From: an uncultured Alphaproteobacteria bacterium
GTDB taxonomy: Bacteria > Pseudomonadota > Alphaproteobacteria > RF32 > CAG-239
Reading direction: 5' to 3'
Length of the DNA: 64,000 bases
Assembly (NCBI GenBank): GCA_944393665.1
Contig: CALYAX010000005.1
Location: 20,611 to 84,610 of the forward strand
Shown here one piece after another: positions 1 to 48,589 of the stretch; positions within the stretch are counted from its first letter, which is position 1, and every line of letters begins with the position of its first letter. The notes beneath the pieces are model-generated. The model saw nothing but the letters and a program-made list of their open reading frames with translations, was not told where the DNA came from and ran no database searches. The translations under genes were made by a program, and so were the position numbers.

Positions 1-367
1 TGTTTTCACTGCCACCTATCTCGGAACAAGGTTTTGAAAGGCATTCAACGGCTTTGCCGTCGCAAAGCTGTGATGAAAGTTGAAACTCCCCGTTGCAAGT
101 CGTTTCATCATATTGATATTCCGAAGGACAGACACAAGCCGTATAACAATACAGAACAGGATTTTCCCGGACGAGTTTCAATTCGCCGCCAAGGCGTTTC
201 GGGGATTCACAAGAAGGAGAATAACCGAAACATTCCATAGGCGCATCAATCCGGTGATTAAGGTCAGCATTATTTTTCAGATAATCAGGAAGCCAGTATA
301 TCCCTGCCTGCACCGGGAAGCTAACCGCTATCATAACCCAAAAACATAATTTTGAGATGTATCTCAT
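1..367 (-). CDS. N-terminal fragment (approx. 122 codons; gene continues beyond window start) of a 4th paralog of the secreted cysteine-rich repeat protein family (MRYISKLCFWVMIAVSFPVQA/GIYWLPDYLKNN...CVCPSEYQY...CDGK..EC)
   Basis: Manual minus-strand translation from ATG 365..367 is stop-free to position 1. It has a signal-peptide-like N-terminus followed by the GIYWLPDYLK(N/D)N motif and Cys spacing shared with the paralogs at 41401, 43907 and 46234. GGAG lies 7 nt upstream of the ATG and a TATAAT (plus 403..408, minus strand) lies upstream. It is not in the ORF track because no stop codon falls inside the window. Confidence 0.6.
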   Translation of the reverse strand, partial: MRYISKLCFWVMIAVSFPVQAGIYWLPDYLKNNADLNHRIDAPMECFGYSPSCESPKRLGGELKLVRENPVLYCYTACVCPSEYQYDETTCNGEFQLSSQLCDGKAVECLSKPCSEIGGSEN

Positions 368-572
368 TTCCGGCTCCGTATAATATTTGGTTTTCAAAAA
401 ATATTATACACAAGCTTTGCACAAAAGTAAATATCTTGTTAAGGATCGTAGACATAAATTTTTTCTAAATCCGACTCCAGCCGTTTTATTTTTTTAAACT
501 ATGCAAACCCTCTGGCCTGACCCGGAAGGTTTATATCTGTCCGCTTCAAAAGTTGTAAGCCGTTTGATACAT

Positions 573-601
573 AAAAAACCCGGTAAAAACCGGGTTTTTT
601 A
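573..601. terminator. Rho-independent terminator downstream of cysS (A-run, ACCCGG..CCGGGT hairpin, T-run; bidirectional appearance)
   Basis: Stem 578..583 pairs with 590..595, flanked by A6 and T6. Confidence 0.7.
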
Positions 602-612
602 TTACTTTAGAT

Positions 613-1998
613 TCAAGCGCGTTTCCAGGTGGTTCCGGAAGGGCTGTCTTCCAGGATAATTCCCTGCTCTTTCAGGCGGTTGCGGATTTCATCGGCCAGG
701 GCATAGTTTTTAGCCTTTTTGGCCTCGGCGCGGGCAGTGATTTCCGCTTCAATTGCAGCCTCGTCCAGACCGCCGGCTCCCTCTCCGCCTTTGAACCAGC
801 TTTCAGGATCCTGCCACAACAACCCCAGCAGATAAGCATCGGCCAACAACTGCGATTTATACTTAACCCGGTCAGTTTCGGTTCCGGCTTTGTTGAGATT
901 ATTGACATCTTCATGCAGATAACTCATTGCCAGCGGGGTATTGAGATCATCAGCCAAAGCCCCGACCAGCCGTTCATCAGGCGCTGTTTCTTCAACCGCC
1001 ACATGAAGATTTTGGCGCAGGGCGTTATAAAATTTATCCAGAGTTTGTTTGGCGGAATTAAGCCCCTCGTAAGTGAAGTTAAAGGGCTGGTGATAGTGCG
1101 TGCTCAAAAAGAGCAGGCGCAGCGCCTCTGCCGGAGCCTTAGCCAGCACCTCTTCCAGGGTATAGAAATTGCCGAGAGATTTAGACATTTTAACGCCGTC
1201 GACCATCAGCATGCCGTTGTGCACCCAATAGCGGGCAAACTGCGAATCGGGATGGGCACACAGCGACTGGGCGCATTCGTTTTCATGATGCGGGAAAATC
1301 AAATCGGTGCCGCCGCCGTGGATATCAAAGGTATTCCCCAGCAGCCTGGAACTCATGGCCGAGCACTCCAGATGCCAGCCGGGGCGCCCGTATCCCCAGG
1401 GGCTTTCCCAGCCGGGTTGTCCGGCCTCTGAAGGTTTCCACAAAACGAAATCGGCAGGGTTTTTCTTATAATCGGCCACCTCAATCCGGGCGCCGGCCAG
1501 CATTTCTTTCATTGAACGGCCGGACAAATACCCGTAGCCGGGCATGGAGTCAACCGAAAACAAAACGTGGCCTTCCGCCTCATAAGCATGGCCGTTTTCA
1601 ACCAACAGCTTAACCAGTTCAATCATCTCCGCGATATATTCGGTAGCCCGGGGCCGAAAATCCGGCGACTGGACATTCAGTTTGGCCATATCATCAATAT
1701 ACCATTGATAAGTCTGCTCGGTAATTTCCCGGATTGAGCGTCCGGTATCCTGATGCTTTTTCAAAATTTTATCATCAACATCGGTTATATTCGATACATA
1801 AGTCACATGTTCTTTGCCGTAAACATGACGCAACAGACGGTTGAGCACGTCAAAAACAATCGGTGGACGCGCATTGCCGAGATGGGCTTTGTCATAAACA
1901 GTAGGGCCGCAGACATACATACGGACATTGGCGGCGTCAATCGGCGTAAATTTTTCTTTACGGCGGTGCAGGGTATTGTGTAAATAAATATCAACCAT
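613..1998 (-). CDS. cysS: cysteine--tRNA ligase
   Basis: 461 aa. HIGH-type motif (HLGNAR), KMSKS motif (KMSKSLGN) and Cys-binding CGPT/WHLEC signatures are present. Confidence 0.95.
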   Translation of the reverse strand: MVDIYLHNTLHRRKEKFTPIDAANVRMYVCGPTVYDKAHLGNARPPIVFDVLNRLLRHVYGKEHVTYVSNITDVDDKILKKHQDTGRSIREITEQTYQWYIDDMAKLNVQSPDFRPRATEYIAEMIELVKLLVENGHAYEAEGHVLFSVDSMPGYGYLSGRSMKEMLAGARIEVADYKKNPADFVLWKPSEAGQPGWESPWGYGRPGWHLECSAMSSRLLGNTFDIHGGGTDLIFPHHENECAQSLCAHPDSQFARYWVHNGMLMVDGVKMSKSLGNFYTLEEVLAKAPAEALRLLFLSTHYHQPFNFTYEGLNSAKQTLDKFYNALRQNLHVAVEETAPDERLVGALADDLNTPLAMSYLHEDVNNLNKAGTETDRVKYKSQLLADAYLLGLLWQDPESWFKGGEGAGGLDEAAIEAEITARAEAKKAKNYALADEIRNRLKEQGIILEDSPSGTTWKRA

Positions 1999-4248: not shown

Positions 4249-4980
4249 TCAAGACCTTAATTCTGACAATTCCAATTTACGGCGGTTGTTATTTTCATTG
4301 GAAACGGTTTGGGTTTCAAGATCTTCCAAAAACCAGGCGATTTCGCCATCGAGGTCGGCAATCTGCTGGTAGAATTTATTGCGGTAAGCCAAAATAAGGC
4401 TGCTCTCGGCAAGTTTGATATCGACAAGTTTAATTTTGCCTCCGGTTTCATGCAGCCGGAAATAGAGCACAAAATCTTCGGCCGGCTGATCCGGACTCAT
4501 CCGGACATGGACAACCGCAGACACAGTGGTGAATTGTTTGTCGGCAGCAGCTCCTGTCACCTGGTAGGAAAGACTGTTTACAAAATCGAGCGGAAAAGTT
4601 TTATAAGCGCTTAAAGCATAGCGCCTAAACAATTGCAAATAAGCCTTTTTTTGTTCGTCAGACATTGTGCGCCAATATTTACCCATGACAAACCGGGCTA
4701 CGTAATCCAGATCAATATTTTCCAAAAACAGGCGGTCAAGAGCGGCAAAGCGGCGGCTGATGTCGGGGTCACGAAACGTATCCAATAACTCGCGGCCGGT
4801 TTGGTCGGCCCAGACTTTGGCAACTTCGGGGGCAACCGGAACCGCGACAGCAGCAGGAGCAGAGGAAGCAGCCAGAGCCGGACGGGCTGAGGAAGCCTCC
4901 GGCGCTGCAGATGCAGCAACGGGCAGTCCTCCTGAAAAAGCCAGACAGATAATAAGTTGCAAAAAAAACTTACTTTTCAT
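4249..4980 (-). CDS. MlaC/Ttg2D-family periplasmic phospholipid-binding protein (toluene tolerance family)
   Basis: 243 aa with a signal peptide and an Ala/Pro-rich linker. The overall sequence has the character of the Tol_Tol_Ttg2 family (YRLHETGGKIKLVDI, FRRY motifs). Confidence 0.55.
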   Translation of the reverse strand: MKSKFFLQLIICLAFSGGLPVAASAAPEASSARPALAASSAPAAVAVPVAPEVAKVWADQTGRELLDTFRDPDISRRFAALDRLFLENIDLDYVARFVMGKYWRTMSDEQKKAYLQLFRRYALSAYKTFPLDFVNSLSYQVTGAAADKQFTTVSAVVHVRMSPDQPAEDFVLYFRLHETGGKIKLVDIKLAESSLILAYRNKFYQQIADLDGEIAWFLEDLETQTVSNENNNRRKLELSELRS

Positions 4981-8614: not shown

Positions 8615-10525
8615 TTACTGTTTAATTTTTGCTTCTACAACAACGCCAAGCAGCGTGAACGGACACGGTTTGGCGCTTTTTATTTTCCACATCGGACGGT
8701 TCATTTCCCGAATCCAGCCCAGAGCGCGCAATTCCACATCGCCGGTATAGATGGTGGCAGGCGCGTCATAATAGACATTATTATTCACCTTGCGCAGCGG
8801 TACTTCATAAAACCCGCTGCCAAGATCAATGCTCATTGCCTGAGTTTCCAGCAGCCGGAAAATTCCGTAAATCAAGCGGTAAGCCTTGGGAAAATACGGC
8901 AATGCGGATTCAACGATAAAAGGCAGCGGCTCAATAATATGCTCATAAGGCAGCCCGACAATTATTTCAGAGGCTTCCTCATGCAGCGTAATGCTGCCGT
9001 CGGTAACCTTAAATGTTCCGCAGTCGAAACCATCGGCAACGACGGCGACGTCCCTATCATTAAGCCGGGCAAGCCCGGTCCAGACTTTTTTCGGCGTTTC
9101 AGAGGTTTGTTTTTCTCCGCAATCCACAAAATAGTCGCTGTTCATAACCTCTACCGAGGTGACAGAACCGCGTTTTACCAAAAAATAAACCAAATCGCCA
9201 ATGACGGCGATACCTTTGAAAAGTCCGTCGGTTTTTAAAATACTCCAGGCAGTCACATCCTCCGTCCGGTAAGTGGTAAGGCAGGCACAGGTGCCGTCAC
9301 CACGGACAATATAAAGAACGCTTTGATTCTGGTTATAATCCATATCCAGAGGCTGGCCGATAATATCCGAGGACAACAATGTCAGGTCTTTGGCCTGATA
9401 GGCCTGTTCGACATCGGTATACAAGAACTCCCGCAGCTGACGGCCGCTGCGGGATACAAACAGCGTGGCACCGTCAACGTTCTGTGGCTGCAGGGTGTAG
9501 GTATTATAACATCCTACATTGGTCTGCCGGCGCAGCTGGATACTTGCAGGTGTCAGCGGCTCGCCGGAAACCATCCATTCTGCCCCGGTGGTAAAGACAA
9601 CCAGATGGCGGGTAGAAATAACATTGACAATGGCATTGACCTGATCAGACAAAATTGAAAAATCAATTGCCTCATCATCTTTGCCCTCCCCGATGTCAAA
9701 ATTGAACAAATCAGAGGATTTGGAAAGCCAGAGGTGGTTTGGCAGACTGCGCGACCCGCCGATGACCAGCCTGTCCTGATGGAAAGTAACCGAGCGGGGA
9801 TAACCGCGGTGGGCACTAAACGACAATTCTTCCCAGTCAGTGGTTTTATCACTTTTGCTCGGTTTGTTTTTATCCGTAAAATCTACCTCAATATGTTGAG
9901 CATCGACATATTTGGTTACTTTTCCTTCGCCGTCGTTCCAGCGGATACGGGTGCCGACCCAGTTTGACGCAAAGGTATCCTCAGCCGTTGCCAGGGTTAC
10001 ATGCAGAGAGTTTGCCCCGGCCGAAGCCCACATTTCTTTGGAGTTCTGGTAAAAATTGTTGTAAGGGGCATAAACACGGTCATCTTTGGAATAAAACTCC
10101 CATTCCTCAATTTTCCAAACCTCGTTGTTATTGCGGCTGATTTTGCGGGGGGAAACATCGGGGTGAACCACCAGCAGCGTATCGGCACTCTGTGTCCATT
10201 TCAGGGTTTTAATCTGTTCTGCCGTCCAGGGAGCGGTCAGCGTCGAAATACAGACATCATTCTTAAAAACCTTCATTTGTCCCGGCACCAGGCAAATCAG
10301 ATAAATCTGCTCGGTATTAAATTCAAAAGGGATCAGCCGGCTGCCGTCAGCAACGGTATCGACATAGCGCAACCCGTAACGGCGGGAAACACCCCCGGTG
10401 GGAAAAATAATAACGTTTTGCAGCGTTGCCGCACCATTGGCAAAGACTTTCAGGTCGCCGCGTCCCAAAAGCTGCGGCGAAACCTGTCCCGACGTGAAAT
10501 TGGTTTTGGCGGTTATCTGATTCAT
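8615..10525 (-). CDS. podovirus tail tubular protein B-like (636 aa)
   Basis: Large structural ORF following the tail-tubular-A-like ORF with an ATGA overlap, in T7 gp11-gp12 order. Confidence 0.5.
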   Translation of the reverse strand: MNQITAKTNFTSGQVSPQLLGRGDLKVFANGAATLQNVIIFPTGGVSRRYGLRYVDTVADGSRLIPFEFNTEQIYLICLVPGQMKVFKNDVCISTLTAPWTAEQIKTLKWTQSADTLLVVHPDVSPRKISRNNNEVWKIEEWEFYSKDDRVYAPYNNFYQNSKEMWASAGANSLHVTLATAEDTFASNWVGTRIRWNDGEGKVTKYVDAQHIEVDFTDKNKPSKSDKTTDWEELSFSAHRGYPRSVTFHQDRLVIGGSRSLPNHLWLSKSSDLFNFDIGEGKDDEAIDFSILSDQVNAIVNVISTRHLVVFTTGAEWMVSGEPLTPASIQLRRQTNVGCYNTYTLQPQNVDGATLFVSRSGRQLREFLYTDVEQAYQAKDLTLLSSDIIGQPLDMDYNQNQSVLYIVRGDGTCACLTTYRTEDVTAWSILKTDGLFKGIAVIGDLVYFLVKRGSVTSVEVMNSDYFVDCGEKQTSETPKKVWTGLARLNDRDVAVVADGFDCGTFKVTDGSITLHEEASEIIVGLPYEHIIEPLPFIVESALPYFPKAYRLIYGIFRLLETQAMSIDLGSGFYEVPLRKVNNNVYYDAPATIYTGDVELRALGWIREMNRPMWKIKSAKPCPFTLLGVVVEAKIKQ

Positions 10526-11094
10526 TGACGCGCCTCCACCAAGGTAAAATCTTCAAATTTGCGCGGCGTGGCCTGCTGGGAATCAATCAGGCGCGCGCGG
10601 TTTAACTCATCTTCGGCCACTTTTTCCAAAAATTCCGCGCGGGTTGTGCTTTCCGTGAGCGGCAGGCAAAACTCAGCCGCCAGTTTGGCTACCAGAGCAT
10701 CGCAGAAAAAGGGCGGAAAATTATTTTCGCCGGGCTGATAAATATAAGTCAAATTTACTTTTTCCGCGTTGGTATGTAACGTATTTTCCTTAACCCGGTA
10801 TTCAATGCCGCGGCCGCGGGTTCCGATACCGGCCGATACAATCCGCAGCAAATCATGGGGCAATTGATAGGCGTATTTATAATCGGCAAGAGGCTGTTCC
10901 GCCAAACGCGGCAAAGTCATCTGGGCAGTGGCAAAACTCCACGGATAACTGGAAATCATTCCATCGCGAATCAGCGGATAGAGGTTGGCGGCAACTTCGG
11001 CTTCCGCAGTGCCGTCAGTATAAGAGGAAATGGTCGAGGCGCCAATTTTTAATAAAGCTTTGGAACATAAGCTGATGTCGGTGTAATTGTTCAT
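10522..11094 (-). CDS. podovirus tail tubular protein A-like (190 aa)
   Basis: Size and position relative to capsid resemble T7 gp11. Confidence 0.45.
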   Translation of the reverse strand: MNNYTDISLCSKALLKIGASTISSYTDGTAEAEVAANLYPLIRDGMISSYPWSFATAQMTLPRLAEQPLADYKYAYQLPHDLLRIVSAGIGTRGRGIEYRVKENTLHTNAEKVNLTYIYQPGENNFPPFFCDALVAKLAAEFCLPLTESTTRAEFLEKVAEDELNRARLIDSQQATPRKFEDFTLVEARQ

Positions 11095-11171
11095 GATAAA
11101 TTTTCCTCAACAAAAAAAGAGCTCCCCGCAAAGGGAGCTCTCATCATTTGCTAATAGTATAAAGGGTTGGT

Positions 11172-11480
11172 TTAAGCAGCCGTCGGGGCAATCGCCGCGA
11201 CGGTAACCGCATTGTCAGCCACCGAGCTTACCGACAGGATTGCCGGAACCAGGGTGCTTCCGACGCCGGTATTGGCCAAAACCATATCGCCGGTGCGGAC
11301 AAAAGGAGCCGTTTCATTAAAATAACCGGATCCTTCTACTGTTGCCAAAGTATCACCAGTCGAATAGTTCCAGAGGGTAAAGCCGTTGGCATAAGCCATA
11401 ACGGAAAAATTTTTTGCATTGTAAGACATATCTTTTCCTTTCGATGTTGAGATAACCTGCCGCAATTTCGGCAGGCTCAT
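11172..11480 (-). CDS. hypothetical phage structural protein (102 aa)
   Basis: Lies between the capsid and tail genes. No motif recognised. Confidence 0.35.
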   Translation of the reverse strand: MSLPKLRQVISTSKGKDMSYNAKNFSVMAYANGFTLWNYSTGDTLATVEGSGYFNETAPFVRTGDMVLANTGVGSTLVPAILSVSSVADNAVTVAAIAPTAA

Positions 11481-11486
11481 TAATAA

Positions 11487-12326
11487 TTAAGCTTCTTTGC
11501 ACTTAATCCGTACAACGCCGGCTTCATCAATCAGACAAGCGCCCTGGCTCATCATATTGTTAACGAAGTGGGCGGCATGGTCGCCGTGCCAGGTAATATC
11601 AGACTTAACATCCTGACCGGAGGCATGGCCGATGGCGGTTTTATGGAAGATGAAGCAATCACGGTTGGTGCTGGACAACGGCAGGCCGGTATGCATTACC
11701 CAGTTGATTCCCAGCCATTTGCGGCTTTCGGTACCTTTCAGATAAGGCATATTTTCTCCGGCATAGTCCGAGCTGGCAAATTCCTGAATATTCAGCAGGG
11801 CGTTCCACTGCAGAGGACCGACGACAGCAAAACGCTGACCGTCATCAGGAACATTATTGCTGTTGAGTTTGGCAAAAGCTTTCAGCAGAGTGGCCTTATC
11901 CAATTCCTTGGTATAATCGCCCACGTCGTTGGTGGTGGAAGCCAAATTCAGGGCATCAATAATCAGTTCATCGGTTTTGCGGCCGAGAGCATAAGCACCG
12001 GCGTTAACAATGACCTGTTTTTCGTCATGGTTCATTTTGAGCTCGTCCAAAGCATCAACCCAATCGCCGGCATAGTAATCCTGCAGTTCGCATTCAATCG
12101 GGGTATGATCAATGCTCATAACCGGAACCAGGCCGTGGCGGGCTTTGCCGGAGGCAACGCCTTTGCCGACTTTCTGGAAGACGGTTGAAGAACCTTTGAC
12201 ATTGTTCTGGGAACGAACCATATTTTTGAGTTTGGAACCGTTCTGCTGATAGGCCAGGTGAACCTCAGCCTGAAATTGTTTTACAAAAGACTCGCTAACT
12301 TGTGTAGACATCTGTTTTTTCTCCAA
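11487..12326 (-). CDS. T7-like major capsid protein (279 aa)
   Basis: N-terminal segment KNMVRSQNNVKGSSTVFQKVG resembles T7 gp10 RHMVRSISSGKSAQFPVLG, and the gene follows the scaffold gene. Confidence 0.65.
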   Translation of the reverse strand: MEKKQMSTQVSESFVKQFQAEVHLAYQQNGSKLKNMVRSQNNVKGSSTVFQKVGKGVASGKARHGLVPVMSIDHTPIECELQDYYAGDWVDALDELKMNHDEKQVIVNAGAYALGRKTDELIIDALNLASTTNDVGDYTKELDKATLLKAFAKLNSNNVPDDGQRFAVVGPLQWNALLNIQEFASSDYAGENMPYLKGTESRKWLGINWVMHTGLPLSSTNRDCFIFHKTAIGHASGQDVKSDITWHGDHAAHFVNNMMSQGACLIDEAGVVRIKCKEA

Positions 12327-12368
12327 AAAAGGTTAGTCATTTTGTATTTGCAAAATGACCGGTGGTTT

Positions 12369-13121
12369 TTATTTGCCGGGGTAGAGTTTCTCAAATCCGG
12401 AAGTGATTTTTCTGACATAAGCCTTGTCGTGGTCACGCCAATAACGGGGATCTTCCATCATTTTGCGGAGGGTTTCCTCGCTCAGCTCCTCAGCCGGAGC
12501 GGTTTCGCGCGACAATACCGGCTCATTGGAAGACATCATTTTATAAAGAGCAATCACGCCTTCCGAGGTTGAAGCCAGGGCATCATAAACCTCGGGAGAG
12601 AGGTTCTGCCTGGCCCAGGACGACAACTGGCGGGAGATCTCGTTAAAACGTTCGCGGCCGCCAAAATGCTTTACCAGTTTTTCAATCTGGCGCTCGGCTT
12701 CAAAATTGACCGTCATTTCTTCAATAAACGGCAACACCCGTTCATTAGCCAGATCATAAACCAGCTGGGCCTGATCGTTGGTAAACTTTTTGTCATAAAA
12801 GCGCTGAAAGATTTCATCATCGCGTTCCAGCAGCGGGCTGGGGATATTAATCTGGTAATCTGCCGGACTGGCCGGAATACCGCGAAGATTTCCCTCAATC
12901 AGGTTTTCATCACGCGCCACCAGGTCATTATAGGCGGCAATCAGTTCATCAAGCTTAACCGAAGCAGTTTCGGCATCCCAAAACTGTTCAGGCAGGCCTG
13001 CCGGTTTGGCAGCAGCTTCAGCAACAACCGTCTGCGGACGTTTTGCCTTTGTCGGCGCAGCCACGGGGGCGCCCTCCTCCAGCAGGTTTTCGGCATTAGG
13101 TTTCATATATTTTCCTTTCAC
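12369..13121 (-). CDS. putative scaffolding protein (250 aa, acidic, helical)
   Basis: Position between portal and capsid, plus composition. Confidence 0.45.
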   Translation of the reverse strand: MKGKYMKPNAENLLEEGAPVAAPTKAKRPQTVVAEAAAKPAGLPEQFWDAETASVKLDELIAAYNDLVARDENLIEGNLRGIPASPADYQINIPSPLLERDDEIFQRFYDKKFTNDQAQLVYDLANERVLPFIEEMTVNFEAERQIEKLVKHFGGRERFNEISRQLSSWARQNLSPEVYDALASTSEGVIALYKMMSSNEPVLSRETAPAEELSEETLRKMMEDPRYWRDHDKAYVRKITSGFEKLYPGK

Positions 13122-13139
13122 ATAAAATGTAAGTTAGGG

Positions 13140-13388
13140 TTAACCCAGCAGCGAAAGCATATATCCTACTAACTGCCGCTGTCCTTCAAGATGCCGCAAA
13201 GCATCGGCGGAACTGTCCGGCCCGAGATATCGCTCCTGAGTCATACGTTTAAGAACGGCAAGGACAATTTGTCCTTCCCGGGTATTAAAACATTTGGCAA
13301 ATGCCCGGCGGATTTCTTCGTCGGGCATTGCGGCAATGTTATAATTGATTTGGCAAGAGGTCATCGCTCCCCTCCCCGGCCAAGGCAC
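13140..13388 (-). CDS. hypothetical protein (82 aa)
   Basis: ORF between portal and scaffold. It overlaps the portal start by 50 nt. Confidence 0.3.
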   Translation of the reverse strand: MPWPGRGAMTSCQINYNIAAMPDEEIRRAFAKCFNTREGQIVLAVLKRMTQERYLGPDSSADALRHLEGQRQLVGYMLSLLG

Positions 13389-14877
13389 TTAAATCCGGCG
13401 CCGTTTCATTAATCAGGCTGGCCGGCACATTCAGGGTTTTGCCAAGGTATTTGGCCGTTTCAAAAAGATTTACCGCGCTCTGTCCGGCAAGCCCCATCGA
13501 GCCGACCATACCGAGCCAATCGGAAATATTATTAACATCGCGGCGTCCCTGCACCATTGCCAAAGGCGATTTGTACTGCAAATCCACGGTCTTGCCGTCA
13601 AGATCAAAATTAGCGACATCACCGCGGCGGCGAAGAATCTGAAAAGCTCTCTTAAGCAGCGGGGTCAGCAGTTCGGTTTGCAGGCGTCCGAACGAAGCGC
13701 CGAGAATCCGTGCCATTTCGGCAGAGCGTTCTAAAACTTCTGTTGCCGTCATGTTCGGAACGTTAACCTGCCCCAAACGGTCTGCCAGCAGGGCATGGTT
13801 GATCCGTGACCGCAAGTCTTCAAGCACCAGCTGCGAAATATCAAATTTTCCGGGCGCTTCCAAAGGCGTGAGTCCCTTCGAACCGACAGCCTTGGGGATT
13901 ATCGCTCCCGGAACCAGCTTGATATTGGCCGGATTAAGAATACCGTCGTCATCTGCCTGCCAGATGCCGGTGACTGAAATTGAAGCGTTTTTCAAAATCA
14001 GCTCCACAACTTTGTTGGCAGTCTTAATGTCCGGAAGCGCTTTCATGACCGGAGAACGCCCGTAAACCTCGCCGGGAGCTTTTAACCAGCGGAAGTTAAT
14101 AAACGGCGACGTGGTAAAAATGCCTTCCCGGATGACCAGATGATCCGACAAAGAAACATTTTCATCAAACAGCACCGCGGTATAACGATAACCTAAGGCA
14201 CCAACGCCTGAATAATTTGGCACAACCGCTTCAAGCAAGCTTAGTTTGAGCCCGGTGTCATTTTCAAAACGCTGCAACAGTTCCGGCGGCAGTTCGGCAT
14301 CAGGAAAGCGCAGGCGGATTTCTGACAAACCGACTTCCGAACAACGATAAGTCGTGTCAATTCTGCCATCGGCACTTTCTTCAAGGGCAATTTCACGCAG
14401 GGGCACTGCATAAAAACGAAAAGCACTGGCCTCACCAAGGGGAGCCTCTTCAAACATCAGACTGGCGGTTCCGGCAGTAACCAAATCAAGGTAACACTGG
14501 TGGATTTCAACGGCAAAGTTTGAATGCTCAAAATTTTGCAATAAAATATCCGCAGTCTTTTCCAAGGTTGCGGATATTTGCTGGCTTTCTTCAGGCGTCA
14601 GTTCCGGTCCGGCTTTTAAACCGAACCATTTGGCCCATGGCGGGGTCAGTTCGGCGAGCAGCGAGGAGGCCAGCTGGTCAACAGCATCAGCCGCGGTCCC
14701 GTCATAAAGATGAAGGTTTTGTTTAGCCCCTTCATAGCCGCCGGCATAGGGAGAGCTGACATTTTCACGCTGCGGCAGCGCGTATTCATAACATTCGCGC
14801 CAATGGCTTTCCCAGCTTTGTTTCCGCTGCAGCGCCTTATGATAGCGCTCAATCAGCTGTTCCACAGAATTTTCCAT
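13339..14877 (-). CDS. podovirus-type portal (head-to-tail connector) protein (512 aa)
   Basis: Size and position upstream of scaffold/capsid, with T7 gp8-like character. Confidence 0.65.
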   Translation of the reverse strand: MENSVEQLIERYHKALQRKQSWESHWRECYEYALPQRENVSSPYAGGYEGAKQNLHLYDGTAADAVDQLASSLLAELTPPWAKWFGLKAGPELTPEESQQISATLEKTADILLQNFEHSNFAVEIHQCYLDLVTAGTASLMFEEAPLGEASAFRFYAVPLREIALEESADGRIDTTYRCSEVGLSEIRLRFPDAELPPELLQRFENDTGLKLSLLEAVVPNYSGVGALGYRYTAVLFDENVSLSDHLVIREGIFTTSPFINFRWLKAPGEVYGRSPVMKALPDIKTANKVVELILKNASISVTGIWQADDDGILNPANIKLVPGAIIPKAVGSKGLTPLEAPGKFDISQLVLEDLRSRINHALLADRLGQVNVPNMTATEVLERSAEMARILGASFGRLQTELLTPLLKRAFQILRRRGDVANFDLDGKTVDLQYKSPLAMVQGRRDVNNISDWLGMVGSMGLAGQSAVNLFETAKYLGKTLNVPASLINETAPDLSALAGEGSDDLLPNQL

Positions 14878-14879
14878 GG

Positions 14880-15104
14880 TTATTCTCCCAACAGTTTTTT
14901 ACGGGTAAATTTGGTGTTCTCGTCCAAAATACCGTTATACGATGTATTAATGGTGCTTTCCACGCCGCGGCGCTGACGGGCCAACGCCTCTTTGCGGGCT
15001 TTTTCCTCAGCCTCGGACTTTTCCTGAGCCGAGTTATCAATGGTATAAACCGGCTGGATTTTCTGGCTGCTGCCGGTGAACGGTATCGTAAATACTTTTC
15101 CCAT
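14880..15104 (-). CDS. hypothetical protein (74 aa)
   Basis: ORF between the lysis cassette and portal. Confidence 0.35.
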   Translation of the reverse strand: MGKVFTIPFTGSSQKIQPVYTIDNSAQEKSEAEEKARKEALARQRRGVESTINTSYNGILDENTKFTRKKLLGE

Positions 15105-15120
15105 AATATGTTCCTTTCAT

Positions 15121-15642
15121 TTAAAGTTTATTGATGACCTTGGAAACGAGGTCTGGTTTTTTGGTCTTTTCTGAACTGCTTTTGACGACGGAGATGCCCA
15201 ACACGCCGAGGGCAATTCCCCACAGCGAGGTGGTTTCAACCATAGCCATAATAATTTCCGGCGCCCGCTGGTTATCAGAAAGCACCACATAACAAATCGT
15301 AAACATATTCATCAGCCACGCCAGCGCTACCGAATAACCGAAGGCGGGCCGCCAAAAGCGGACGAAGCGGTCACCGGAAGCCAGTTCCTGACGAATCGTC
15401 TGATGAATGGTAGACAAGGTTTTGTCATCAACCTCAGCTTCAATCTCCAGAGATTTTTCAACATGCCGGTTAGCCTCTTTCAGCTCATCCAGCGATATCT
15501 GCTGTTTTTGAATAGCGGTATCGACCTCGCCAAGCATGGTTCCGGCCTGGCGGGCAAGATTGTTATTCATTCCCGATAACGCCCGGCCGATAAATTTGAC
15601 CAAAATCGGCAGTCCGATTTTGCCTAAAAGTTTTGCAATCAT
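15121..15642 (-). CDS. holin-like membrane protein (173 aa)
   Basis: C-terminal TM segments. It lies immediately downstream of the cell wall hydrolase gene. Confidence 0.4.
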   Translation of the reverse strand: MIAKLLGKIGLPILVKFIGRALSGMNNNLARQAGTMLGEVDTAIQKQQISLDELKEANRHVEKSLEIEAEVDDKTLSTIHQTIRQELASGDRFVRFWRPAFGYSVALAWLMNMFTICYVVLSDNQRAPEIIMAMVETTSLWGIALGVLGISVVKSSSEKTKKPDLVSKVINKL

Positions 15643-15645
15643 CGT

Positions 15646-16062
15646 TTATTCCTCAATGTCATTATAAAAAAAGTGGCGGCCGATTTCAGCACAGGGAATC
15701 TTACCGACGGACCAGGCCGGACGCACGTTTTTGGTATGATAATGCGTTGCACCGCAGGTTTTATCTTCAAGCGTGCCGGCTACGGCCCGGGCGGCAATCC
15801 GTTTACAGATACAAAAGATGAGATCGGTATCGGGAACTCTGGTAATAACTTTATAATTGGGATCTTCCTGATTCCAGCAGGAAAACTGCCAGGGATAGCG
15901 GCAGACTTCACTGACGGTGTTTCCCCACCAGTAGCGGCCGCGGCGTTTGGAAAAATGAACCCGGTTCATTACCACTTCAGCAATGGCTTCCTGGCCGGAA
16001 ACGCTTTCTCCCCGGGCCTCGCCGTAAATAGTGCGGGCCAGCGTATCAATATCTTCAGTCAT
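15646..16062 (-). CDS. cell wall hydrolase (SleB/Hydrolase_2 family) - phage endolysin candidate
   Basis: LARTIYGEARGE...NRV motif typical of the SleB-type cell wall hydrolase domain. Confidence 0.75.
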   Translation of the reverse strand: MTEDIDTLARTIYGEARGESVSGQEAIAEVVMNRVHFSKRRGRYWWGNTVSEVCRYPWQFSCWNQEDPNYKVITRVPDTDLIFCICKRIAARAVAGTLEDKTCGATHYHTKNVRPAWSVGKIPCAEIGRHFFYNDIEE

Positions 16063-16369
16063 GGCGGCGCCCTCCTACCTGATCAAGTTTCTTTTCAATT
16101 CTCAGCAAATGATTGGTAAGACGGTTTTCAACATCTTTCAAATAATTGACCGAAACATAATTACGGGCAACATGAAGTTTAAACTCGGACAGAGACTCTT
16201 TCACCAGCCCGATCGCTTCGTCATTCAGCTGTTTATGAGATGTAAAAGAGCTGTCATTTTCCCGTTTGTTTTTGATAATCAGCCGAAACAGGGCGGCAAA
16301 GACCGGGACCTCGATCATAGTGGCCCAGGTCATTAATTCATTGGTCATTGGTTTCTCCTTATATTTCAA
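16055..16369 (-). CDS. membrane protein (104 aa), possible holin/spanin component
   Basis: Single N-terminal TM segment. It overlaps the hydrolase start. Confidence 0.35.
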   Translation of the reverse strand: MKYKEKPMTNELMTWATMIEVPVFAALFRLIIKNKRENDSSFTSHKQLNDEAIGLVKESLSEFKLHVARNYVSVNYLKDVENRLTNHLLRIEKKLDQVGGRRHD

Positions 16370-17915
16370 ATTTGCTCAAAGCACTATACTGGGCACTTCC
16401 TCCCTGCCAGCCGGGAGCGGCAGAAGCAACAATTCCGCATTGCGGCAGCCGGACCGGTTCATTCAGCAGGCATCCGGCTACGGCATCCAGGGCATCATCA
16501 TGGACGGAGGCCGCCGGCGACCACTCGCGCATTTCTTCAACAAAACCGCTGCTCCAAATTCTGCGATGGGCATGCAACGCTTTTTCAGCCAGCAAAACTT
16601 CAAAAGCCTCCAAAATCCGCGCCTGTTTGTTAGAATGCGAATACATTTCAATCACCGCGGCACGCAGGCCCTCAGAGCGTAACGTCTGTTTCAAAATTCC
16701 GGGCAGAAACTTGCCGATACCGTTGGCTTCGACCCGAACTGACGGCAGATGATTACGGCGCAAAAACTCAGTCACTTTCTGACATTGCAGCGAGGCCACG
16801 TTTTCGGCATCCCGGGCCGGAAGACGGATATATTCCAAATCATGCAGCCAGAAACGCCCGTTTTCATCAGCAAAGACGCAGGCAATGACGGAGTTGTCTC
16901 CCTTTCCCTCTGCAGCGAAAGAAGGATCCCACCAGCAAGAGGCTGAAACCATTTTGACATCGCCGATTTTTAAAATCTCGCGGCCGTTGGCAAAACTGAT
17001 ACTGATTTCATCGCCGTAAGCCACCATACGGGAGGGATCCAGCCGGCTGTCGGTAATATTGACGGGGCGCAGCATCATTTGTGACTGAAATTTATTTTCA
17101 CCGGAGCGGGTACGTACCGAGGCAATTTTTTCCTCGCTGAACCGCTCGGGCCAGGCGGAGCGTCCCCGGGAATCGAGAATCGGCAGCAGCAAACGGTTAA
17201 AACCGCGCAGATAAGGTTCTATTTCAGGCTTGGACGGATCATCGTCCGTCTGATAAATCGTATAATAAGTATGCGGCGTTCCGATATAAAGCTGCATTCC
17301 CTCAGGCGTGAGAATATAATCCAGCTCGTCAAGGCGGGCGCGCAGTTCCTGGCGTTTTAATGCCGAATCGCAGTTTTTAGGCACTTCCACGTCATCACAA
17401 ATTATCAAATCTGCCCGCAGACCGGTAATATTGGCACCAATCCCTTTGGCAAGCATTGACGGATCCCGGAGCTCCTGGTCGCGGCGGATGGTGAACTGAT
17501 CCGAGGCCCATTGGTCCAGACGGTCCGGCTTGAGACCGCGGGTGAGCAGGTGCTGTTCAATAATTCTTTTGACATTGCGAACCATTTTCTTGGCCAGGGC
17601 ATGGTCGGCGGCCATTACCAAAATCCGGGTCTGCGGCCGCCGGTATAAGACCCAGGCGCAAAACAAGCCGACTATAGTCGATTTTCCGGAGTTGCGGAAA
17701 GCCATCAGCAGTCCCTGCCGGTCGGCAGCCCGAAGCCATAAACCGGAAAGCCATCTGGCAATCTTCCGCTGGTGGCGCGGAACTGTTAATCCCTGAAGCC
17801 GCATCCAGATGAAAACGAATTCAAAAAAATCAACCGTTCGTTTTTTTCCGGCGGCAGGGGCAGGGTCAATCTTCTTCATCTTGGTAACGGTCATTTTCAG
17901 CTTCTGCCTCCTCAA
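16359..17915 (-). CDS. phage terminase large subunit (518 aa)
   Basis: Walker A NSGKST and Walker B LIICDD with a nuclease-domain C-terminus. T7 gp19-like. Confidence 0.8.
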   Translation of the reverse strand: MRRQKLKMTVTKMKKIDPAPAAGKKRTVDFFEFVFIWMRLQGLTVPRHQRKIARWLSGLWLRAADRQGLLMAFRNSGKSTIVGLFCAWVLYRRPQTRILVMAADHALAKKMVRNVKRIIEQHLLTRGLKPDRLDQWASDQFTIRRDQELRDPSMLAKGIGANITGLRADLIICDDVEVPKNCDSALKRQELRARLDELDYILTPEGMQLYIGTPHTYYTIYQTDDDPSKPEIEPYLRGFNRLLLPILDSRGRSAWPERFSEEKIASVRTRSGENKFQSQMMLRPVNITDSRLDPSRMVAYGDEISISFANGREILKIGDVKMVSASCWWDPSFAAEGKGDNSVIACVFADENGRFWLHDLEYIRLPARDAENVASLQCQKVTEFLRRNHLPSVRVEANGIGKFLPGILKQTLRSEGLRAAVIEMYSHSNKQARILEAFEVLLAEKALHAHRRIWSSGFVEEMREWSPAASVHDDALDAVAGCLLNEPVRLPQCGIVASAAPGWQGGSAQYSALSKFEI

Positions 17916-20192: not shown

Positions 20193-20677
20193 TAAAACTG
20201 CTGGGTTGAAATCATTTTTTCTATCTGGTGCAAAGCCGTCAGCGGCGAAGCGGAAAAATCGATTTTGGTTCCATTGACCGCCGTACAGAAACTGCCGCCG
20301 CTGTCATAATGGCAGTAGGGCGTGGTAAACCATTTGACATAAACCGAGCTGTCGTCAATGTGGACATTAATGCCGTTGACTGCGCAATATTCGGCTTTTG
20401 CCGTGTCCCACAATTTATCGGGAATTTTGTACTCGCCGTTTTCAAAATATTTAACATCACCATGGGCATCATAATAATCCAGAATGGCAAAAATTTCGGT
20501 ATACGCCACGCCCCATTGCTCCAATTTCTGCCTGACCAGTTCACAGGGACCACCGGTAATGACATGAATCTCGTAGCCTTTGCGCACTGCTGCACGGGTA
20601 AAACGGGCAAAATATTCTGGCCGGTCGTTAATAACACCGTGAAAGTCCAATCCGATTTTAAGGCCTCTAACGGTCAT
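20189..20677 (-). CDS. hypothetical protein, possibly HAD-like hydrolase (162 aa)
   Basis: N-terminal LDFHGVIND resembles HAD motif I but with His in place of the second Asp. Weak call. Confidence 0.3.
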   Translation of the reverse strand: MTVRGLKIGLDFHGVINDRPEYFARFTRAAVRKGYEIHVITGGPCELVRQKLEQWGVAYTEIFAILDYYDAHGDVKYFENGEYKIPDKLWDTAKAEYCAVNGINVHIDDSSVYVKWFTTPYCHYDSGGSFCTAVNGTKIDFSASPLTALHQIEKMISTQQFY

Positions 20678-43764: not shown

Positions 43765-43784
43765 AATAGCTTAACAGACAAAAC

Positions 43785-43816
43785 CTCCCCGGTGGCCTTT
43801 TCCGGGGAGTTTTTTG
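43785..43816 (+). terminator. Rho-independent terminator of paralog 1 (CTCCCCGG-loop-CCGGGGAG-T6)
   Basis: Read directly. It is duplicated at 46111..46142. Confidence 0.8.
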
Positions 43817-43839
43817 TGTCCAGCCCTCTAAACTATTTA

Positions 43840-43906: not shown

Positions 43907-46090
43907 ATGAGAACAGTCTTTTTAGCCCTGGGTTTGCTAATCGCAAGCGCTTTGCCTGCTTACACCGCCTCTCCGCATAACACATACACACACAACACCG
44001 CCTTTGCTGTTTCAGAACAGTCTTACCGACTTGCCGGGATTTATTGGCTTCCGGATTATCTTAAGAATAATATCGATACCAATCGTCGTACAGATGTTGA
44101 CACCGGCGGTGGAGATATTCCGGTAGAATGCAAAAATTACGCGCCGGAATGTACATCGCCTCAAGTTCCCGGAGGTAAAACGGTGCGTATCAGCGATAAA
44201 TTCTGCCCTGTCGAATGCGTGTGTCCTGACAGTTACAAATACACATCGTCCAACTGCTCCGGAGACAAGAAACCTTCCGGCTCGGTTTGTGACGGCAAGT
44301 ATAACGACTGCCGCAGCCTGACTTGCGAAGAACGCGGTCTCAAAACCTGCGGATCCGCCTGTATCGCGGCTTCTGCCTGTTGCACGGATACGGACTGTGG
44401 CAGCGGCAAGAAATGCTCTTCCGGTTCCTGCATCGCCAAAAGTTGCGAGGAAATGGGGCAAAAAACCTGTAACGGAAGCTGTATCGCGGCTTCTGCCTGT
44501 TGCACGGATACGGACTGTGGCAGTGGCAAAAAATGTTCTTCCGGTTCCTGCATCGCCAAAAGTTGCGAGGAAATGGGACAAAAGACCTGTAACGGCAAGT
44601 GCATTGCCAAAACAGCCTGCTGTGTGAGCGGGGACTGTGCCAGCGGCATGAAATGCTTTGACAACATTTGCATTGCCCAAACCTGTGAAGAAAAAGGCTT
44701 AAAAACCTGTAACGGAAGCTGTATCGCGGTTTCTGCCTGTTGCATGGATACGGACTGCGGCAGTGGCAAAAAATGTTCTTCCGGTTCCTGTGTCGCTAAA
44801 AGCTGCGAGGAAATGGGTCAGAAAACCTGTAACAGCAAGTGCATTGCAAAAACTGCCTGCTGCACTGATACGGACTGCGGCAGCGGCAAGAAATGCCAAA
44901 ACGGATCCTGCGTAGATAGCCAGCCAAAATCAAAATGTTATGAAAAGCTTAAAGCTAAAGGTTATCTGGTAGCTGAAAACGGTGCCGAACTTGAAGCGAT
45001 TTTAAATCGCGCAGATACGCTTTCCCTGCCGGTTACTATTTATATTTTGGGAGATACTGTCATTGATAATTTTGAATTTTTCACCACCAATGGTGAAGTT
45101 TTTCCAATTCCGGTTATAAATTTGTACGATGCCTATAAAGCAGAAACAGACGGTTTGTGCTCTTTTAATGACGAAACTAATGACACCCGGATAAAGCTTC
45201 TGATGTCAAAATTAACTGTAAACAATAAATTCACCATGATGGGAATGTTATACAATTTTTTCCTTTCCTCTTTCCACATCAATATCTTTGATATTTTGTC
45301 CGGAGATGTTCATTTTTTTGATGCTGTCGGAAATTACGGCAGTGAGGCAACAATCAATAAACTGACAGAAAACTCCGGCGCTTTGTTTGGATCAACTGTT
45401 TATATTCAAGGTAAAGATGCCATATCCATGATTAATATTGACGAAATTATCAATGGAAACAGTTTAAATTTTAATTTGAATAATATCGCTTCGCTTACTG
45501 CTAATAAATTTATTGCGGAGGACTATGCACAGGCGCAGATTATAGCTGATAACGGTTTAGCAGACATCGGAACAATTACGCTTCCTAAACAAAATATATT
45601 TAATGTGACATTAAGCAACGAATCCCGGATGAGTGTGTCCAACATTACACCTCTAACAAAGACTAATTCAGCTTTTGACGTTATGATCAGAACGGGAAGT
45701 ATGTTTCGAGATGAAAGCGGAGCAGATGGTAAACCAATCGGAAATTATGTTTACCAGCCGGGAGTGACTTTCCATATGGAAATGAGCCGAAACTCCAACA
45801 ACAGCGACACAGGGAAGGCTTACAAGAATTGCATGACAACCTATACCTCTGTTGGCTATGAATCGTTTTGTACGCCAATAGCCGGCACCTATGCAGGAGG
45901 CTCTACTATTCCTGGAAATGCGATTCTTAATACCAGCTATAACACAACAAGCAGCTATTACGGAAATCCTCCGTGCACTTATAAAGATTGGAAACCGGCA
46001 TTTTCTGCAGATTTCAGTAATGTATTTAATACTGGAACGAATTATACGGCTTATTACAACTGTACTGTATACAATTTCTCAGCGTTGTAG
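43907..46090 (+). CDS. secreted cysteine-rich modular repeat protein, paralog 2 (727 aa): signal peptide, SPHNTYTHNTAF segment, GIYWLPDYLK N-module, five tandem 40-aa B-type 8-Cys modules (CEEMGQKTCNGSCIAASACCTDTDCGSGKKCSSGSCIAKS), and an Asn-rich C-terminal region
   Basis: Start chosen at MRTVFLALG (SD GGAGAA 43896..43901) by alignment with paralog 3. The ORF track start 43850 was rejected. Confidence 0.8.
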   Translation: MRTVFLALGLLIASALPAYTASPHNTYTHNTAFAVSEQSYRLAGIYWLPDYLKNNIDTNRRTDVDTGGGDIPVECKNYAPECTSPQVPGGKTVRISDKFCPVECVCPDSYKYTSSNCSGDKKPSGSVCDGKYNDCRSLTCEERGLKTCGSACIAASACCTDTDCGSGKKCSSGSCIAKSCEEMGQKTCNGSCIAASACCTDTDCGSGKKCSSGSCIAKSCEEMGQKTCNGKCIAKTACCVSGDCASGMKCFDNICIAQTCEEKGLKTCNGSCIAVSACCMDTDCGSGKKCSSGSCVAKSCEEMGQKTCNSKCIAKTACCTDTDCGSGKKCQNGSCVDSQPKSKCYEKLKAKGYLVAENGAELEAILNRADTLSLPVTIYILGDTVIDNFEFFTTNGEVFPIPVINLYDAYKAETDGLCSFNDETNDTRIKLLMSKLTVNNKFTMMGMLYNFFLSSFHINIFDILSGDVHFFDAVGNYGSEATINKLTENSGALFGSTVYIQGKDAISMINIDEIINGNSLNFNLNNIASLTANKFIAEDYAQAQIIADNGLADIGTITLPKQNIFNVTLSNESRMSVSNITPLTKTNSAFDVMIRTGSMFRDESGADGKPIGNYVYQPGVTFHMEMSRNSNNSDTGKAYKNCMTTYTSVGYESFCTPIAGTYAGGSTIPGNAILNTSYNTTSSYYGNPPCTYKDWKPAFSADFSNVFNTGTNYTAYYNCTVYNFSAL
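44324..44923 (+). repeat. Five in-frame tandem 120-bp coding repeats; copies 1 and 2 differ at only a few synonymous/near-synonymous sites
   Basis: Unit boundaries at 44324, 44444, 44564, 44684 and 44804, each beginning TGCGAGGAA/TGTGAAGAA (CEE). Confidence 0.9.
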
Positions 46091-46195: not shown

Positions 46196-46233
46196 GGAAA
46201 TAGTTCCGGAACAGTAATTATTGGAGAATGGTC

Positions 46234-48589
46234 ATGAGAACAGTCTTTTTAGCCCTGGGTTTGTTTATTGCAAGCACTTTGCCTGCTCTTGCCGCCTCTC
46301 CGCATAACACATACACACACAACACCGCCTTTGCTGTTCCGGAACAGTCTTACCAACTCGCAGCAACCTGGTTCCTTCCCGACTGGCAGGCCGGGCTTGT
46401 TTCACGTACCGATACCGCTCCCGCCGGGTCCGGTGATCCTTCCCTTTCCGATTCCGCCTGCCTGACGACTTATAATCTCTTCTCCGCTTGTGTCGCTCCG
46501 CAGACCATCAAAAAGACATATAATTTCGGTAAGCTCACCTGTTATGACTGTGTCTGTCCCTCTTCTTATCAATATACTTCTTCCAACTGTTCAAACGGAT
46601 ATACGCTGGCCGGAGGGTCCTGCAACGGTAAATATCTCCAGTGCGATCCCTCGGCCTGTCCGTCAGGGTACACAGCCGGAAAGACCTGCGCCTCCGGTTA
46701 TGACCGTGAGGTGAACGGCAAATCCGGCTCCCAGGACTGTGCCAGATGCGTGGCCAAGGGCTGCCCCTCAGGCTATTCTGCAGGTTTGTCTAACTGCAAC
46801 GGGCAATCTTATACGGAGGGGTGGACCTATTCTTCCAACGGTTATGCCGGTAATAGTATCTGCGGCAAGTGCACCGCCAAGTCCTGTGCCCCGGGGGTAT
46901 ACTGCCGGGCTGGCCAACTGTAACGGACAGTCCCAGCCGTCGGGATGGACTTACAGTTCTAATGGGTATGCGGGAAACTCGGTCTGCGGGAAATGTACCG
47001 CCAAGTCCTGCCCGGCCGGATACAGCGCCGGGGTCACCCAGTGCAGCAACACCACAAGCTGGACCTATGGTTCCAACGGCTATGCCGGAAACAGTATCTG
47101 CGGCAAATGTACGTCCAAAGACTGTGCTTCGGGCTATACGGCGGGTTTAGCCAACTGTAACGGGAAAGCGCACCCGGCAGGATGGAGTTACACCGCCGGA
47201 ACGCCCAGCGGCAACACGGTTTGCGGCAAGTGCACCGCCAAAAGCTGCACGGCGGGGAGCACCAGCTGCAACAGCTCAACCCAGAACGCGACGGCCAACG
47301 GCTATTATGCAGGGGACAGTGTTTGTTACACCTGCGTCGCCAAGACCTGCGAACAAATGGGGCAGAAAACCTGCAACGGATCCTGTATTGCCACTTCCGA
47401 ATGCTGCGGCGGATGTCCTGCCGGGCACGAATGTAACGATGGAACCTGTATTCAGACAAAATGCGAGGCCGGGTATATTTTTTATTCCGACGGAACGTGT
47501 AATTCGGATTATTTAGCAGATAAGACTCCGGTCGGCATAGTGGCTGACCCTGAACACCGGCTTTTGATAGACTTAAAAGGAATTAATAATATTTCGTTAT
47601 TGGCGACAATAAGCAATATTAATATTCCGATGATAGGCAATGAATACACGCGTCCGATTTCATTTAACGGCTATTCCAATACAACAATTCTGGCAAGATA
47701 TACACCTGCTGCAACCACATGCCTGACCAAAAACCGTGACGGCATCATGAACAACTGGTATATTCCCGGCAGCGGGGAAATCCTTTCCGTTGGTAAAAAT
47801 TATCAGGCTGTTTATGCCGGACTGAATAAGCTGGCCGATTACGGCTTGGCAGACCCTAATCTGGGCTATTTATGGAGTTCCGATGAAGTATACAGCAGCG
47901 ATGAATTGGGACTGGTCATGAATCCGGCTGACCGTCAGTTAACTGCGAGACCGAGAATGGCAATGGCTGCCAATCTCCGCTGTATGGCCCATTATCTTTG
48001 CTCTGCCGCAAGCGGCTGTGAACTCCCCTGCCCGTTTGAATCTTCTGGTGACAGCAGTAACGGCGTGAATGGCTACACCAGGAAAAGTATTTCCTGCGAC
48101 GACGGATGGCTGGTCCAATCTTATCCGTTCAATTCCGCCTGCAAACGCTGTATCAATGATACCGTAGAAGGAAGCAGCAGCGGGGGAAACCAACCCGGCA
48201 AAACCGAATGTCAGGTTCTGGACTCAATGTATTATAGCAACGGTAAATATTTTTGTACTACCGCAGCCTCGGCTAATGGCACCTACATGGGAAAAATAGG
48301 AAAGAAAGGGCTGGTTATTTTGGGACAAATCGGTTCGACAATGTCTGTTTCCGATGCCGAGCAACAATGCAACAACTATACCAGAGGGACTTTCAGCAAC
48401 TGGCGGATTGTCTATACCAGCGACTCTGACAAATGGTCATCTATTATCTGCAATGTTTGCCACCCCTTTGGCAAAAGCGGCTCCCTATCAATGTATTACG
48501 GGGGTTACGGCTGGAATACCGCCACTTCTTATGACCGAAACGGCACTTTGTATTGTACGCATTCGTACAGCAATGTTTATCGGGAATAA
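46234..48589 (+). pseudogene. secreted cysteine-rich modular repeat protein, paralog 3 (~785 aa if read through), interrupted by a +1 frameshift in a C4G5 tract at 46889..46897. Its 5' end matches paralog 2 and its A-repeat/B-module body matches paralog 1, so it is chimeric.
   Basis: ORF 46228..46923 ends CTAKSCAPGVYCRAGQL* while the overlapping frame (46739..48589) continues PRGYTAGLANCNGQSQPSGWTYSSNGYAGNS... Removing one G from GGGGG restores ...SCAPGYTAGLANCNG... Confidence 0.75.
46893..46897 (+). repeat. G5 homopolymer (preceded by C4) at the frameshift point of paralog 3
   Basis: gcc ccggggg tat at 46888..46900. Confidence 0.9.

Follow-up and report, generated by a model that had tools for sequence, protein, structure and literature searches.

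The stretch of DNA analysed here (the window, 64,000 nucleotides) begins, on its minus strand, with the 5' part of a real and intact gene, which its first position cuts. From its sequence, the product of this gene would on balance be a Sec-exported, disulfide-bonded binding protein located at the cell surface or outside the cell, with an N-terminal motif docking a conserved partner. It belongs to a family which appears to be undescribed, the only named sources so far being uncultured gut Alphaproteobacteria. The novelty lies in a sequence family which combines a conserved motif with the lack of any Pfam, NCBIfam or PDB relative; its role is what we infer from these data.

A complete gene cut by the window edge

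Read on the minus strand from the ATG at 367–365, the window holds codons 1–122 of a 373-codon gene, with no stop before position 1, the remaining 755 nt lying past it. The first residues are MRYISKLCFWVMIAVSFPVQA then GIYWLPDYLKNN..., and the exact 122 residues proposed by an earlier, sequence-only reading of this DNA were reproduced. The missing part was obtained by looking up the adjacent cysS gene (613–1998, minus strand) in public assemblies. One of the contigs thus retrieved, L004, matches the window at 100% identity along 6923 nt, reaching window position 1, and extends the ORF by 251 codons with 31 further cysteines, in an unbroken frame, up to a stop following ...ASCVVCL. The extension proposed in that reading has thus been run, and shows neither stop nor frameshift beyond position 1 and a Cys-rich remainder. 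The full protein has 373 residues and 41 cysteines, 40 of which are in the mature chain (11.4% Cys, an even count).

Public gene callers already predict this protein, nameless or hypothetical, at 362, 373 or 383 aa, and the 373-aa start is the one with a proper positively charged n-region. The gene had been described as unannotated. It is indeed absent from the ORF list of the window, where only two plus-strand ORFs (34..240 and 80..349) appear at the edge, as had been stated, but this is an artefact of the edge: the gene looked unannotated because the list omits ORFs running off the window end, and the public calls already hold the protein.

Two orthologs are found in the same gltX-cysS-gene-orf79-DUF179 position, namely P0002 (locus L019), 78% identical, and P0003 (locus L021), 52% identical. 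Comparison with L019 gives a dN/dS of 0.133/1.27, about 0.10, and P0002 keeps every one of the 40 mature cysteines. Completion of the ORF on an identical contig, syntenic orthologs, dN/dS and conserved cysteines together therefore identify a real gene. At the L021 distance, 52% identity for the edge protein compares with 90% for cysS, 88% for gltX and 66–91% for the other neighbours: the edge gene is the fastest-evolving of its neighbourhood, yet constrained. The features described here are collected in Table 1.

Table 1. Position of the edge gene, of its associated elements and of its three paralogs in the window
Feature	Position	Strand	Basis and remarks
Edge gene, 5' part	1..367	-	Stop-free translation; completed on L004 6557-7678
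Sec-type signal peptide MRYISKLCFWVMIAVSFPVQA	305..367	-	Read by eye from the sequence
Family motif A-G-I-Y-W-L-P-D-Y-L	278..307	-	Residues 21-30
N-module Cys-rich core, C46 to C114, 9 cysteines	26..232	-	Alignments A1, A2; includes CVCPSEYQY, CDGK..C
In-window part of the strain-variable segment	1..611	.	blastn breakpoints
Shine-Dalgarno-like GGAG	374..377	-	6 nt before the ATG at 367-365; GGGG in ortholog locus L019
AT-rich palindrome GTATAATATTT-N10-AAATATTATAC	378..409	-	Perfect 11-nt inverted repeat; kept in L019 upstream of 10001
Promoter-like TTTACT-17-TATAAT	403..431	-	Consensus scan, 10/12 positions; -10 region kept in L019
cysS terminator hairpin ATAAAAAACCCGGT-tttt-ACCGGGTTTTTTAT	571..602	-	14-nt perfect inverted repeat; within the strain-variable segment
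Paralog 1, 788 aa	41398..43764	+	Signal peptide, AGIYWLPDYLK, ~40-aa Cys repeats, Cys-poor Asn/Ser/Thr-rich C-terminal domain
Paralog 2	43907..46090	+	Listed as 746 aa from TTG 43850; among the three, the nearest to the edge copy
Paralog 3	46228..48589	+	Two ORFs; motif variant AATWFLPDWQ

A Shine–Dalgarno sequence and a TATAAT had been pointed out upstream of the ATG. The former is present, at 377–374. The TATAAT is present too, as the -10 part of a promoter-like site, but carries no weight alone, as shuffled sequence yields as many sites (mean 1.3, versus one here). This site is consistent with a promoter, and is not evidence by itself. The AT-rich palindrome covers the -10 box together with the 5' leader and ends just ahead of the Shine–Dalgarno sequence. 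It is possibly an operator or a leader hairpin, with a weak RNA fold (-8.1 kcal/mol, z -1.7). A search of window positions 1–700 against Rfam gave sub-threshold matches only, all on the cysS terminator.

Architecture of the edge protein

The signal peptide can be divided into MRYISK, with two positive charges, an 11-residue hydrophobic core (LCFWVMIAVSF) and PVQA, which places V-Q-A at positions -3/-1. An equivalent N-terminus is seen in all aligned family members. No L-[AS]-[GA]-C lipobox is found, since the signal peptide ends in ...FPVQA followed by GIYW and the first later cysteine is C46. Assignment as a bacterial lipoprotein was rejected for lack of the lipobox Cys.

Behind the family motif, the N-module core contains the (nearly) invariant columns of the family, C46, C74, C78, C80, C91, C102, G104 and C109, all present in the edge protein, which also shows the family spacing C..C, C-Y..C-x-C-P..Y.Y...N-C.G....G..C.G-K...C. 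The protein is Cys-rich throughout, with CxC and CxxC spacings, and looks like a mosaic of one PCS..GG....C..YGGR.CY.C module, two DNCR.R...GCE.Y..DCP.KC modules, a DCSGY.L...P.NA...C.PGC module and a lineage-specific C-terminus. Its modules are common piecemeal to P0005–P0009.

The full-length AF2 model, obtained from 8 aligned sequences, has a poor overall pLDDT of 60.9 but is confident at residues 45–210. When the N-module is modelled from 78 aligned sequences, the Cys core reaches pLDDT 86–93, and the motif and the following D/N-rich linker form a low-confidence coil (pLDDT 53–60). These low values may be due to uncertainty of the model, and not to a flexible motif. Foldseek searches with the full-length model returned non-significant matches only, topped by TNFR-type CRDs, Pvs25 and R-spondin, and the N-module core model has no fold match in the PDB. 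A profile search over all PDB sequences gave nothing at E<=1.

Domain databases are equally silent. A Pfam scan of the 122-aa window fragment and of the paralogs revealed no family at E<=0.1 (the sole match, at 0.17, is a chance one), the NCBIfam scan of the full-length edge protein, P0001, no family at E<=1, and the precomputed Pfam domains of P0001, P0002 and P0003 list none. Among the known Cys-rich Pfam and NCBIfam families (EGF, cEGF, TNFR, Ephrin_rec_like/GCC2_GCC3 and the Myxococcus Cys-rich repeat), none matches the edge protein.

Relation to the three paralogs at 41–48 kb

The edge gene had been presented as a fourth, dispersed paralog, on the strand opposite to a tandem trio at 41–48 kb, and this view holds. 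Compared with the window by tblastn, the full edge protein matches each of the three genes, at E 1.7e-22 (44033–44803), 6e-12 (41419–41727) and 2e-5 (46324–46659). Alignment agrees, with the signal peptide, GIYWLPDYLK and the C-x-C-P-x-x-Y-x-Y / C-x-G-K...C spacing recovered as described, and the D/N/G-rich linker reproduced as well. When the window is translated in all six frames, a [YWT..][WYF]LPD[YWF] pattern is met four times, once per family gene, and three sites are exact AGIYWLPDY or close to it.

The alignment of the N-modules suggested at the same time has been made, and reproduces the cysteine spacing at 31–47% identity between the edge copy and the trio. The edge N-module is nearer to its sister-lineage ortholog (~88%), and the duplication is therefore old. 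The edge copy is an old paralog rather than the product of a recent dispersal of the trio. The 788- and 746-aa paralogs have large Cys-poor domains at the C-terminus, which the edge protein (373 aa) lacks.

Several features are specific to the trio. The end of paralog 1, Cys-poor and Asn/Ser/Thr-rich, looks from its sequence like a beta-helix. Paralog 2 probably starts at ATG 43907, the listed TTG at 43850 being probably wrong. It contains, at 44359–44896, a 120-bp (40-aa) tandem repeat in 4.5 copies (73–80% match), which encodes a CEEMGQKTCNGSCIA.SACCTDTDCGSGKKC.SGSCIAKS module and could give rise to repeat-number variation. The terminator, promoter region and signal peptide (MRTVFLALGL...) of paralogs 2 and 3 are nearly identical (43780–43910 and 46110–46236), which points to a recent duplication or gene conversion of these 5' ends. 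The upstream region contains the palindrome GTTCCGGAAC. The two ORFs of paralog 3 (46228–46923 and 46739–48589) overlap, with a frameshift at or near a C4G5 run (gtgCCCCGGGGGtat, ~46888–46898), for which an error of sequencing or assembly, a pseudogene or slipped-strand phase variation could account. Within the C-terminal region of paralog 3, the sequence NNWYIPGSGEIL resembles the Lcl_C/DUF1566 core, with no Pfam match at E<=0.1.

The YWLPDY N-module family

The family was defined by a profile of the N-module (A2), used in an exhaustive search of 1.84 billion representative proteins. This search gave 159 proteins or clusters at E<=1e-3, among which 53 at E<=1e-10, with lengths of 90–1562 aa and an N-module starting nearly always at residue 20–60. 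Searching with the edge protein itself (phmmer) detects family matches down to 9e-7. A second homolog search with the N-module profile returned short fragments only, named "MAG: hypothetical protein [Alphaproteobacteria bacterium]". Nothing relevant was found in the literature on the motif string or on DUF1566 with cysteine-rich proteins.

The most conserved stretch of the family is the motif, with the consensus A-[GKR]-[IVT]-Y-W-L-P-D-Y-[LQ], within the first ~60 residues. It is found in 141 of 156 family sequences; proline is present in all 141, aspartate in 138, leucine in 136 and the alanine at -2 in 139, and a distant variant of ARTYYLPDYQ type also occurs. Its position is bimodal, either straight after the signal peptide or, in ~40% of the members, some 25–35 residues deeper. 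In these long-leader members, the residues preceding the conserved alanine (Y-K-L-A, for example) do not fit a signal-peptidase site, and the motif thus need not be the mature N-terminus.

The motif is coupled to at least two types of first Cys module, CVCPS.YQY and CPNGWL, and small Cys modules follow the N-module in an order which differs between members, as if shuffled. Among 74 relatives, the Pfam domains found behind the N-module are Lcl_C (4), DUF285 (4), PKD (3), and single cases of Ephrin_rec_like, TNFR-like TNFR_ELAPOR1 and cEGF. Behind the motif, 83 members have an even number of cysteines and 38 an odd one (p = 5e-5), a predominance of even counts which is expected for disulfide pairing.

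A small module of another kind, C..LGY(T/N)KS...C.......CPFD..K..C, forms the C-terminus of some members (L008 108–1754, P0041) and is also seen at the N-terminus of neighbouring secreted ORFs (L008 1767–2507; L005 7148–7714), one of which has the W-Y-L-P..GEL motif typical of Lcl_C. Its presence in adjacent genes suggests module exchange between neighbours.

A motif-based scan of species-representative genomes yielded 14 loci, distributed over 8 assemblies, a single genome having up to 4 of them. All 8 are MAGs of uncultured Alphaproteobacteria or "Proteobacteria", including CAG:495, Hadza and other gut bins. The neighbours of these loci, taken from the best 25 of 149 families, are of housekeeping type, and no gene for secretion, anchoring or immunity recurs among them. 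CAG:495 has a family member after hflK-hflC-degP-holC, as is the case for the trio in the window. In E27__bin196, a family member and a 246-aa secreted ORF adjoin cysS-gltX-mlaC, this ORF carrying the W-Y-L-P..GEL motif typical of Lcl_C. The positions of the edge gene and of the trio are kept in other genera, and the repertoire is therefore old, chromosomal and dispersed. Amino acid identities between the window and these genomes are 85% for HflC and 78% for HflK (CAG:495), and 81% for GltX and 77% for CysS (E27__bin196). The window itself has an MlaC-like gene at 4249–4980, and a 1086-aa YhdP-like (AsmA-family) envelope protein is encoded at 20667–23927 on the minus strand (PF13116, E 6e-36); outer-membrane lipid-transport genes are therefore prominent in it.

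Presence and absence between strains

The edge gene lies in a segment of 1364 bp which is present in the window and in contigs L003 and L004, and replaced by 7 bp in L001 and L002 (blastn breakpoints L004 6313–7676 versus L001 7408–7414), with flanks 98.7–99.8% identical. L001 and L002 encode an identical CysS protein, yet are without the edge gene, which is thus dispensable in some strains. The segment comprises the cysS terminator, the promoter and the whole edge gene to its stop codon. The sister lineages hold the gene at the same site, so that its presence is ancestral and its absence most simply explained by deletion. To judge from the local sequence, this deletion may have occurred between two similar A-tract/CCCGG terminators which flank the gene.

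Proposed role and alternative readings

In the reading that we favour, the 21-residue signal peptide would be removed to give a mature protein of ~352 residues with 40 cysteines, which probably form 20 disulfides. Oxidative folding in the periplasm would produce a rigid, disulfide-laddered rod, which the cell would carry on its surface or release from it, and which would serve in binding or adhesion. The A-G-I-Y-W-L-P-D-Y-L stretch would be a flexible linear motif docking a conserved partner involved in export or in anchoring, and the rapidly diverging modules behind it would make up an exposed, variable surface. Conservation of the motif, its independence from the module that follows, its variable distance from the signal peptide and the lack of modelled packing all argue for a docking element. 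The extracellular-type domains of relatives, the fast evolution, the presence/absence pattern and the dispersed copies point in turn to a surface or extracellular role. Both the fast evolution and the loss in some strains suit a protein within reach of host, phage or competitors. Against this reading, the edge protein has no recognisable adhesin domain and no evident route across the outer membrane, its full-length model is poor and gave no fold match, and no secretion or anchor gene recurs beside the 14 family loci in the best 25 of 149 families.

The protein might instead reside in the periplasm, as a redox buffer, a metal or ligand binder or a structural component of the envelope, not exposed at the surface, with the motif as a structural element of its fold. 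This appears rather unlikely. The CxC and CxxC spacings of such a Cys-rich protein would suit it, but the even cysteine counts of the family point to disulfides rather than to free thiols. Similarly, the dN/dS of ~0.1 indicates constraint, whereas the gene evolves much faster than its neighbours and can be dispensed with. A signal peptide with no recognisable outer-membrane translocation domain or partner gene is also what a periplasmic resident would have; against this, the N-module is fused in relatives to Lcl_C, PKD, DUF285 and EGF/TNFR-like domains, and the model leaves the motif outside the core.

It is improbable that the protein is a secreted effector, or a polymorphic protein of bacteriocin or toxin type, directed at competitors or host cells, with a conserved N-terminal delivery domain and a variable C-terminal payload. 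The 74 relatives show no Pfam domain of a toxin or an enzyme, and the neighbours of the 14 loci, in the best 25 of 149 families, are of housekeeping type with no recurring small immunity-type gene. The resemblance comes from a conserved N-terminal module followed by highly variable C-terminal regions (90–1562 aa) in a multi-copy, strain-variable family, but the variable parts are repeated structural Cys modules and not discrete toxin domains.

The gene could also be thought of as a mobile or phage-borne cassette recently acquired beside cysS, given that near-identical strains either have or cleanly lack the 1364-bp segment, which includes a terminator and a promoter of its own, and that T7-like phage structural genes lie at 8.6–17.9 kb. 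The orthologs at the same site in two sister lineages make a recent acquisition very improbable. Moreover, the segment has no terminal (inverted) repeats, no target duplication and no recombinase or integrase; its G+C content (44%, versus 48% for the contig) was judged native; and no relative was found on 2.9 million viral contigs. By repeats, recombinase, composition and viral contigs alike, the edge gene does not look like a mobile element or phage cargo. Six housekeeping-type genes also separate it from the phage-like genes.

The latter, on the minus strand at 8615–17915, ~6 kb from the edge gene, form a T7-like structural cluster with a capsid protein (PF19821, E 2e-78), a T7 capsid-assembly/scaffold protein, a head-tail connector/portal (E 5e-130) and a terminase-like ORF. 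From its gene content, this cluster appears to be a prophage or a remnant of one.

Finally, a spurious ORF or decaying pseudogene, as might be suspected of a frame cut by the window with no database name and no Pfam match, is refuted by the intact full length in identical contigs, by a dN/dS of ~0.10 with the 40 mature cysteines kept, and by syntenic orthologs down to 52% identity within a family of 159 clusters.

The preferred reading of an exported binding protein can be carried one step further, with much less assurance. A-[GKR]-[IVT]-Y-W-L-P-D-Y might be an unrecognised N-terminal sorting or anchoring signal of this gut alphaproteobacterial lineage, which would direct a disulfide-rich, host-like (EGF/TNFR-style) repertoire to the cell surface through a dedicated partner and build a variable coat, gained, lost and reshuffled between strains. 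This proposal is doubtful at present. To our knowledge, almost nothing is known about the cell surface of uncultured gut Alphaproteobacteria related to CAG:495. If the motif were such a signal, it would mark the surface or secreted proteome of the lineage and hint at an envelope pathway not known so far. The family would in addition be a natural candidate for interaction with host, phage or competitors, and a useful strain marker.

Comparison with known systems

In Brucella, outer-membrane proteins are covalently anchored to peptidoglycan through an N-terminal Ala-Asp. These proteins likewise belong to an alphaproteobacterial envelope and have a conserved N-terminus after the signal peptide. 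In contrast with their Ala-Asp and beta-barrel, the family has a G/K/R-[IVT]-Y-W-L-P-D-Y motif and no beta-barrel. Since the motif lies 25–35 residues inside the mature protein in ~40% of the members, a free N-terminal residue cannot be required.

The TPS domain of TpsA and the N22 segment of curli CsgA illustrate the same concept, a conserved segment following the signal peptide and then a variable region. The family has no sequence similarity to them and no TPS or curli Pfam match, and no tpsB-, Omp85- or csgG-like neighbour is found at the 14 loci in the best 25 of 149 families. Type V secretion (autotransporter or TpsA) was rejected, as neither the window paralogs nor the 74 relatives contain a beta-barrel or TPS Pfam domain.

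The EGF/cEGF, TNFR CRD and ephrin-receptor-like/furin-like modules share with the edge protein a content of ~10% Cys and a tandem arrangement of small disulfide-ladder modules, and occur like it in multigene, rapidly diverging families. The Giardia variant surface proteins are Cys-rich, multigene and rapidly diverging. With no significant sequence or fold match for the edge protein, the likeness to EGF/TNFR-type modules is compositional and architectural only; unlike eukaryotic ectodomain proteins, the edge protein is bacterial and has no transmembrane anchor.

The last comparison is with Legionella Lcl, a secreted adhesin, and more generally with Lcl_C (DUF1566) and DUF285/PKD surface proteins. 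None of the domains Lcl_C, DUF285 and PKD is present in the edge protein itself, and the Pfam and NCBIfam models do not include the YWLPDY N-module. There is a likeness between YWLPDY and the W-[YR]-L-P core of Lcl_C domains, which carries no weight here. Like the proteins of the family, these surface proteins are exported, modular and repeat-containing, and in some relatives of the edge protein an Lcl_C, DUF285 or PKD domain follows the N-module.
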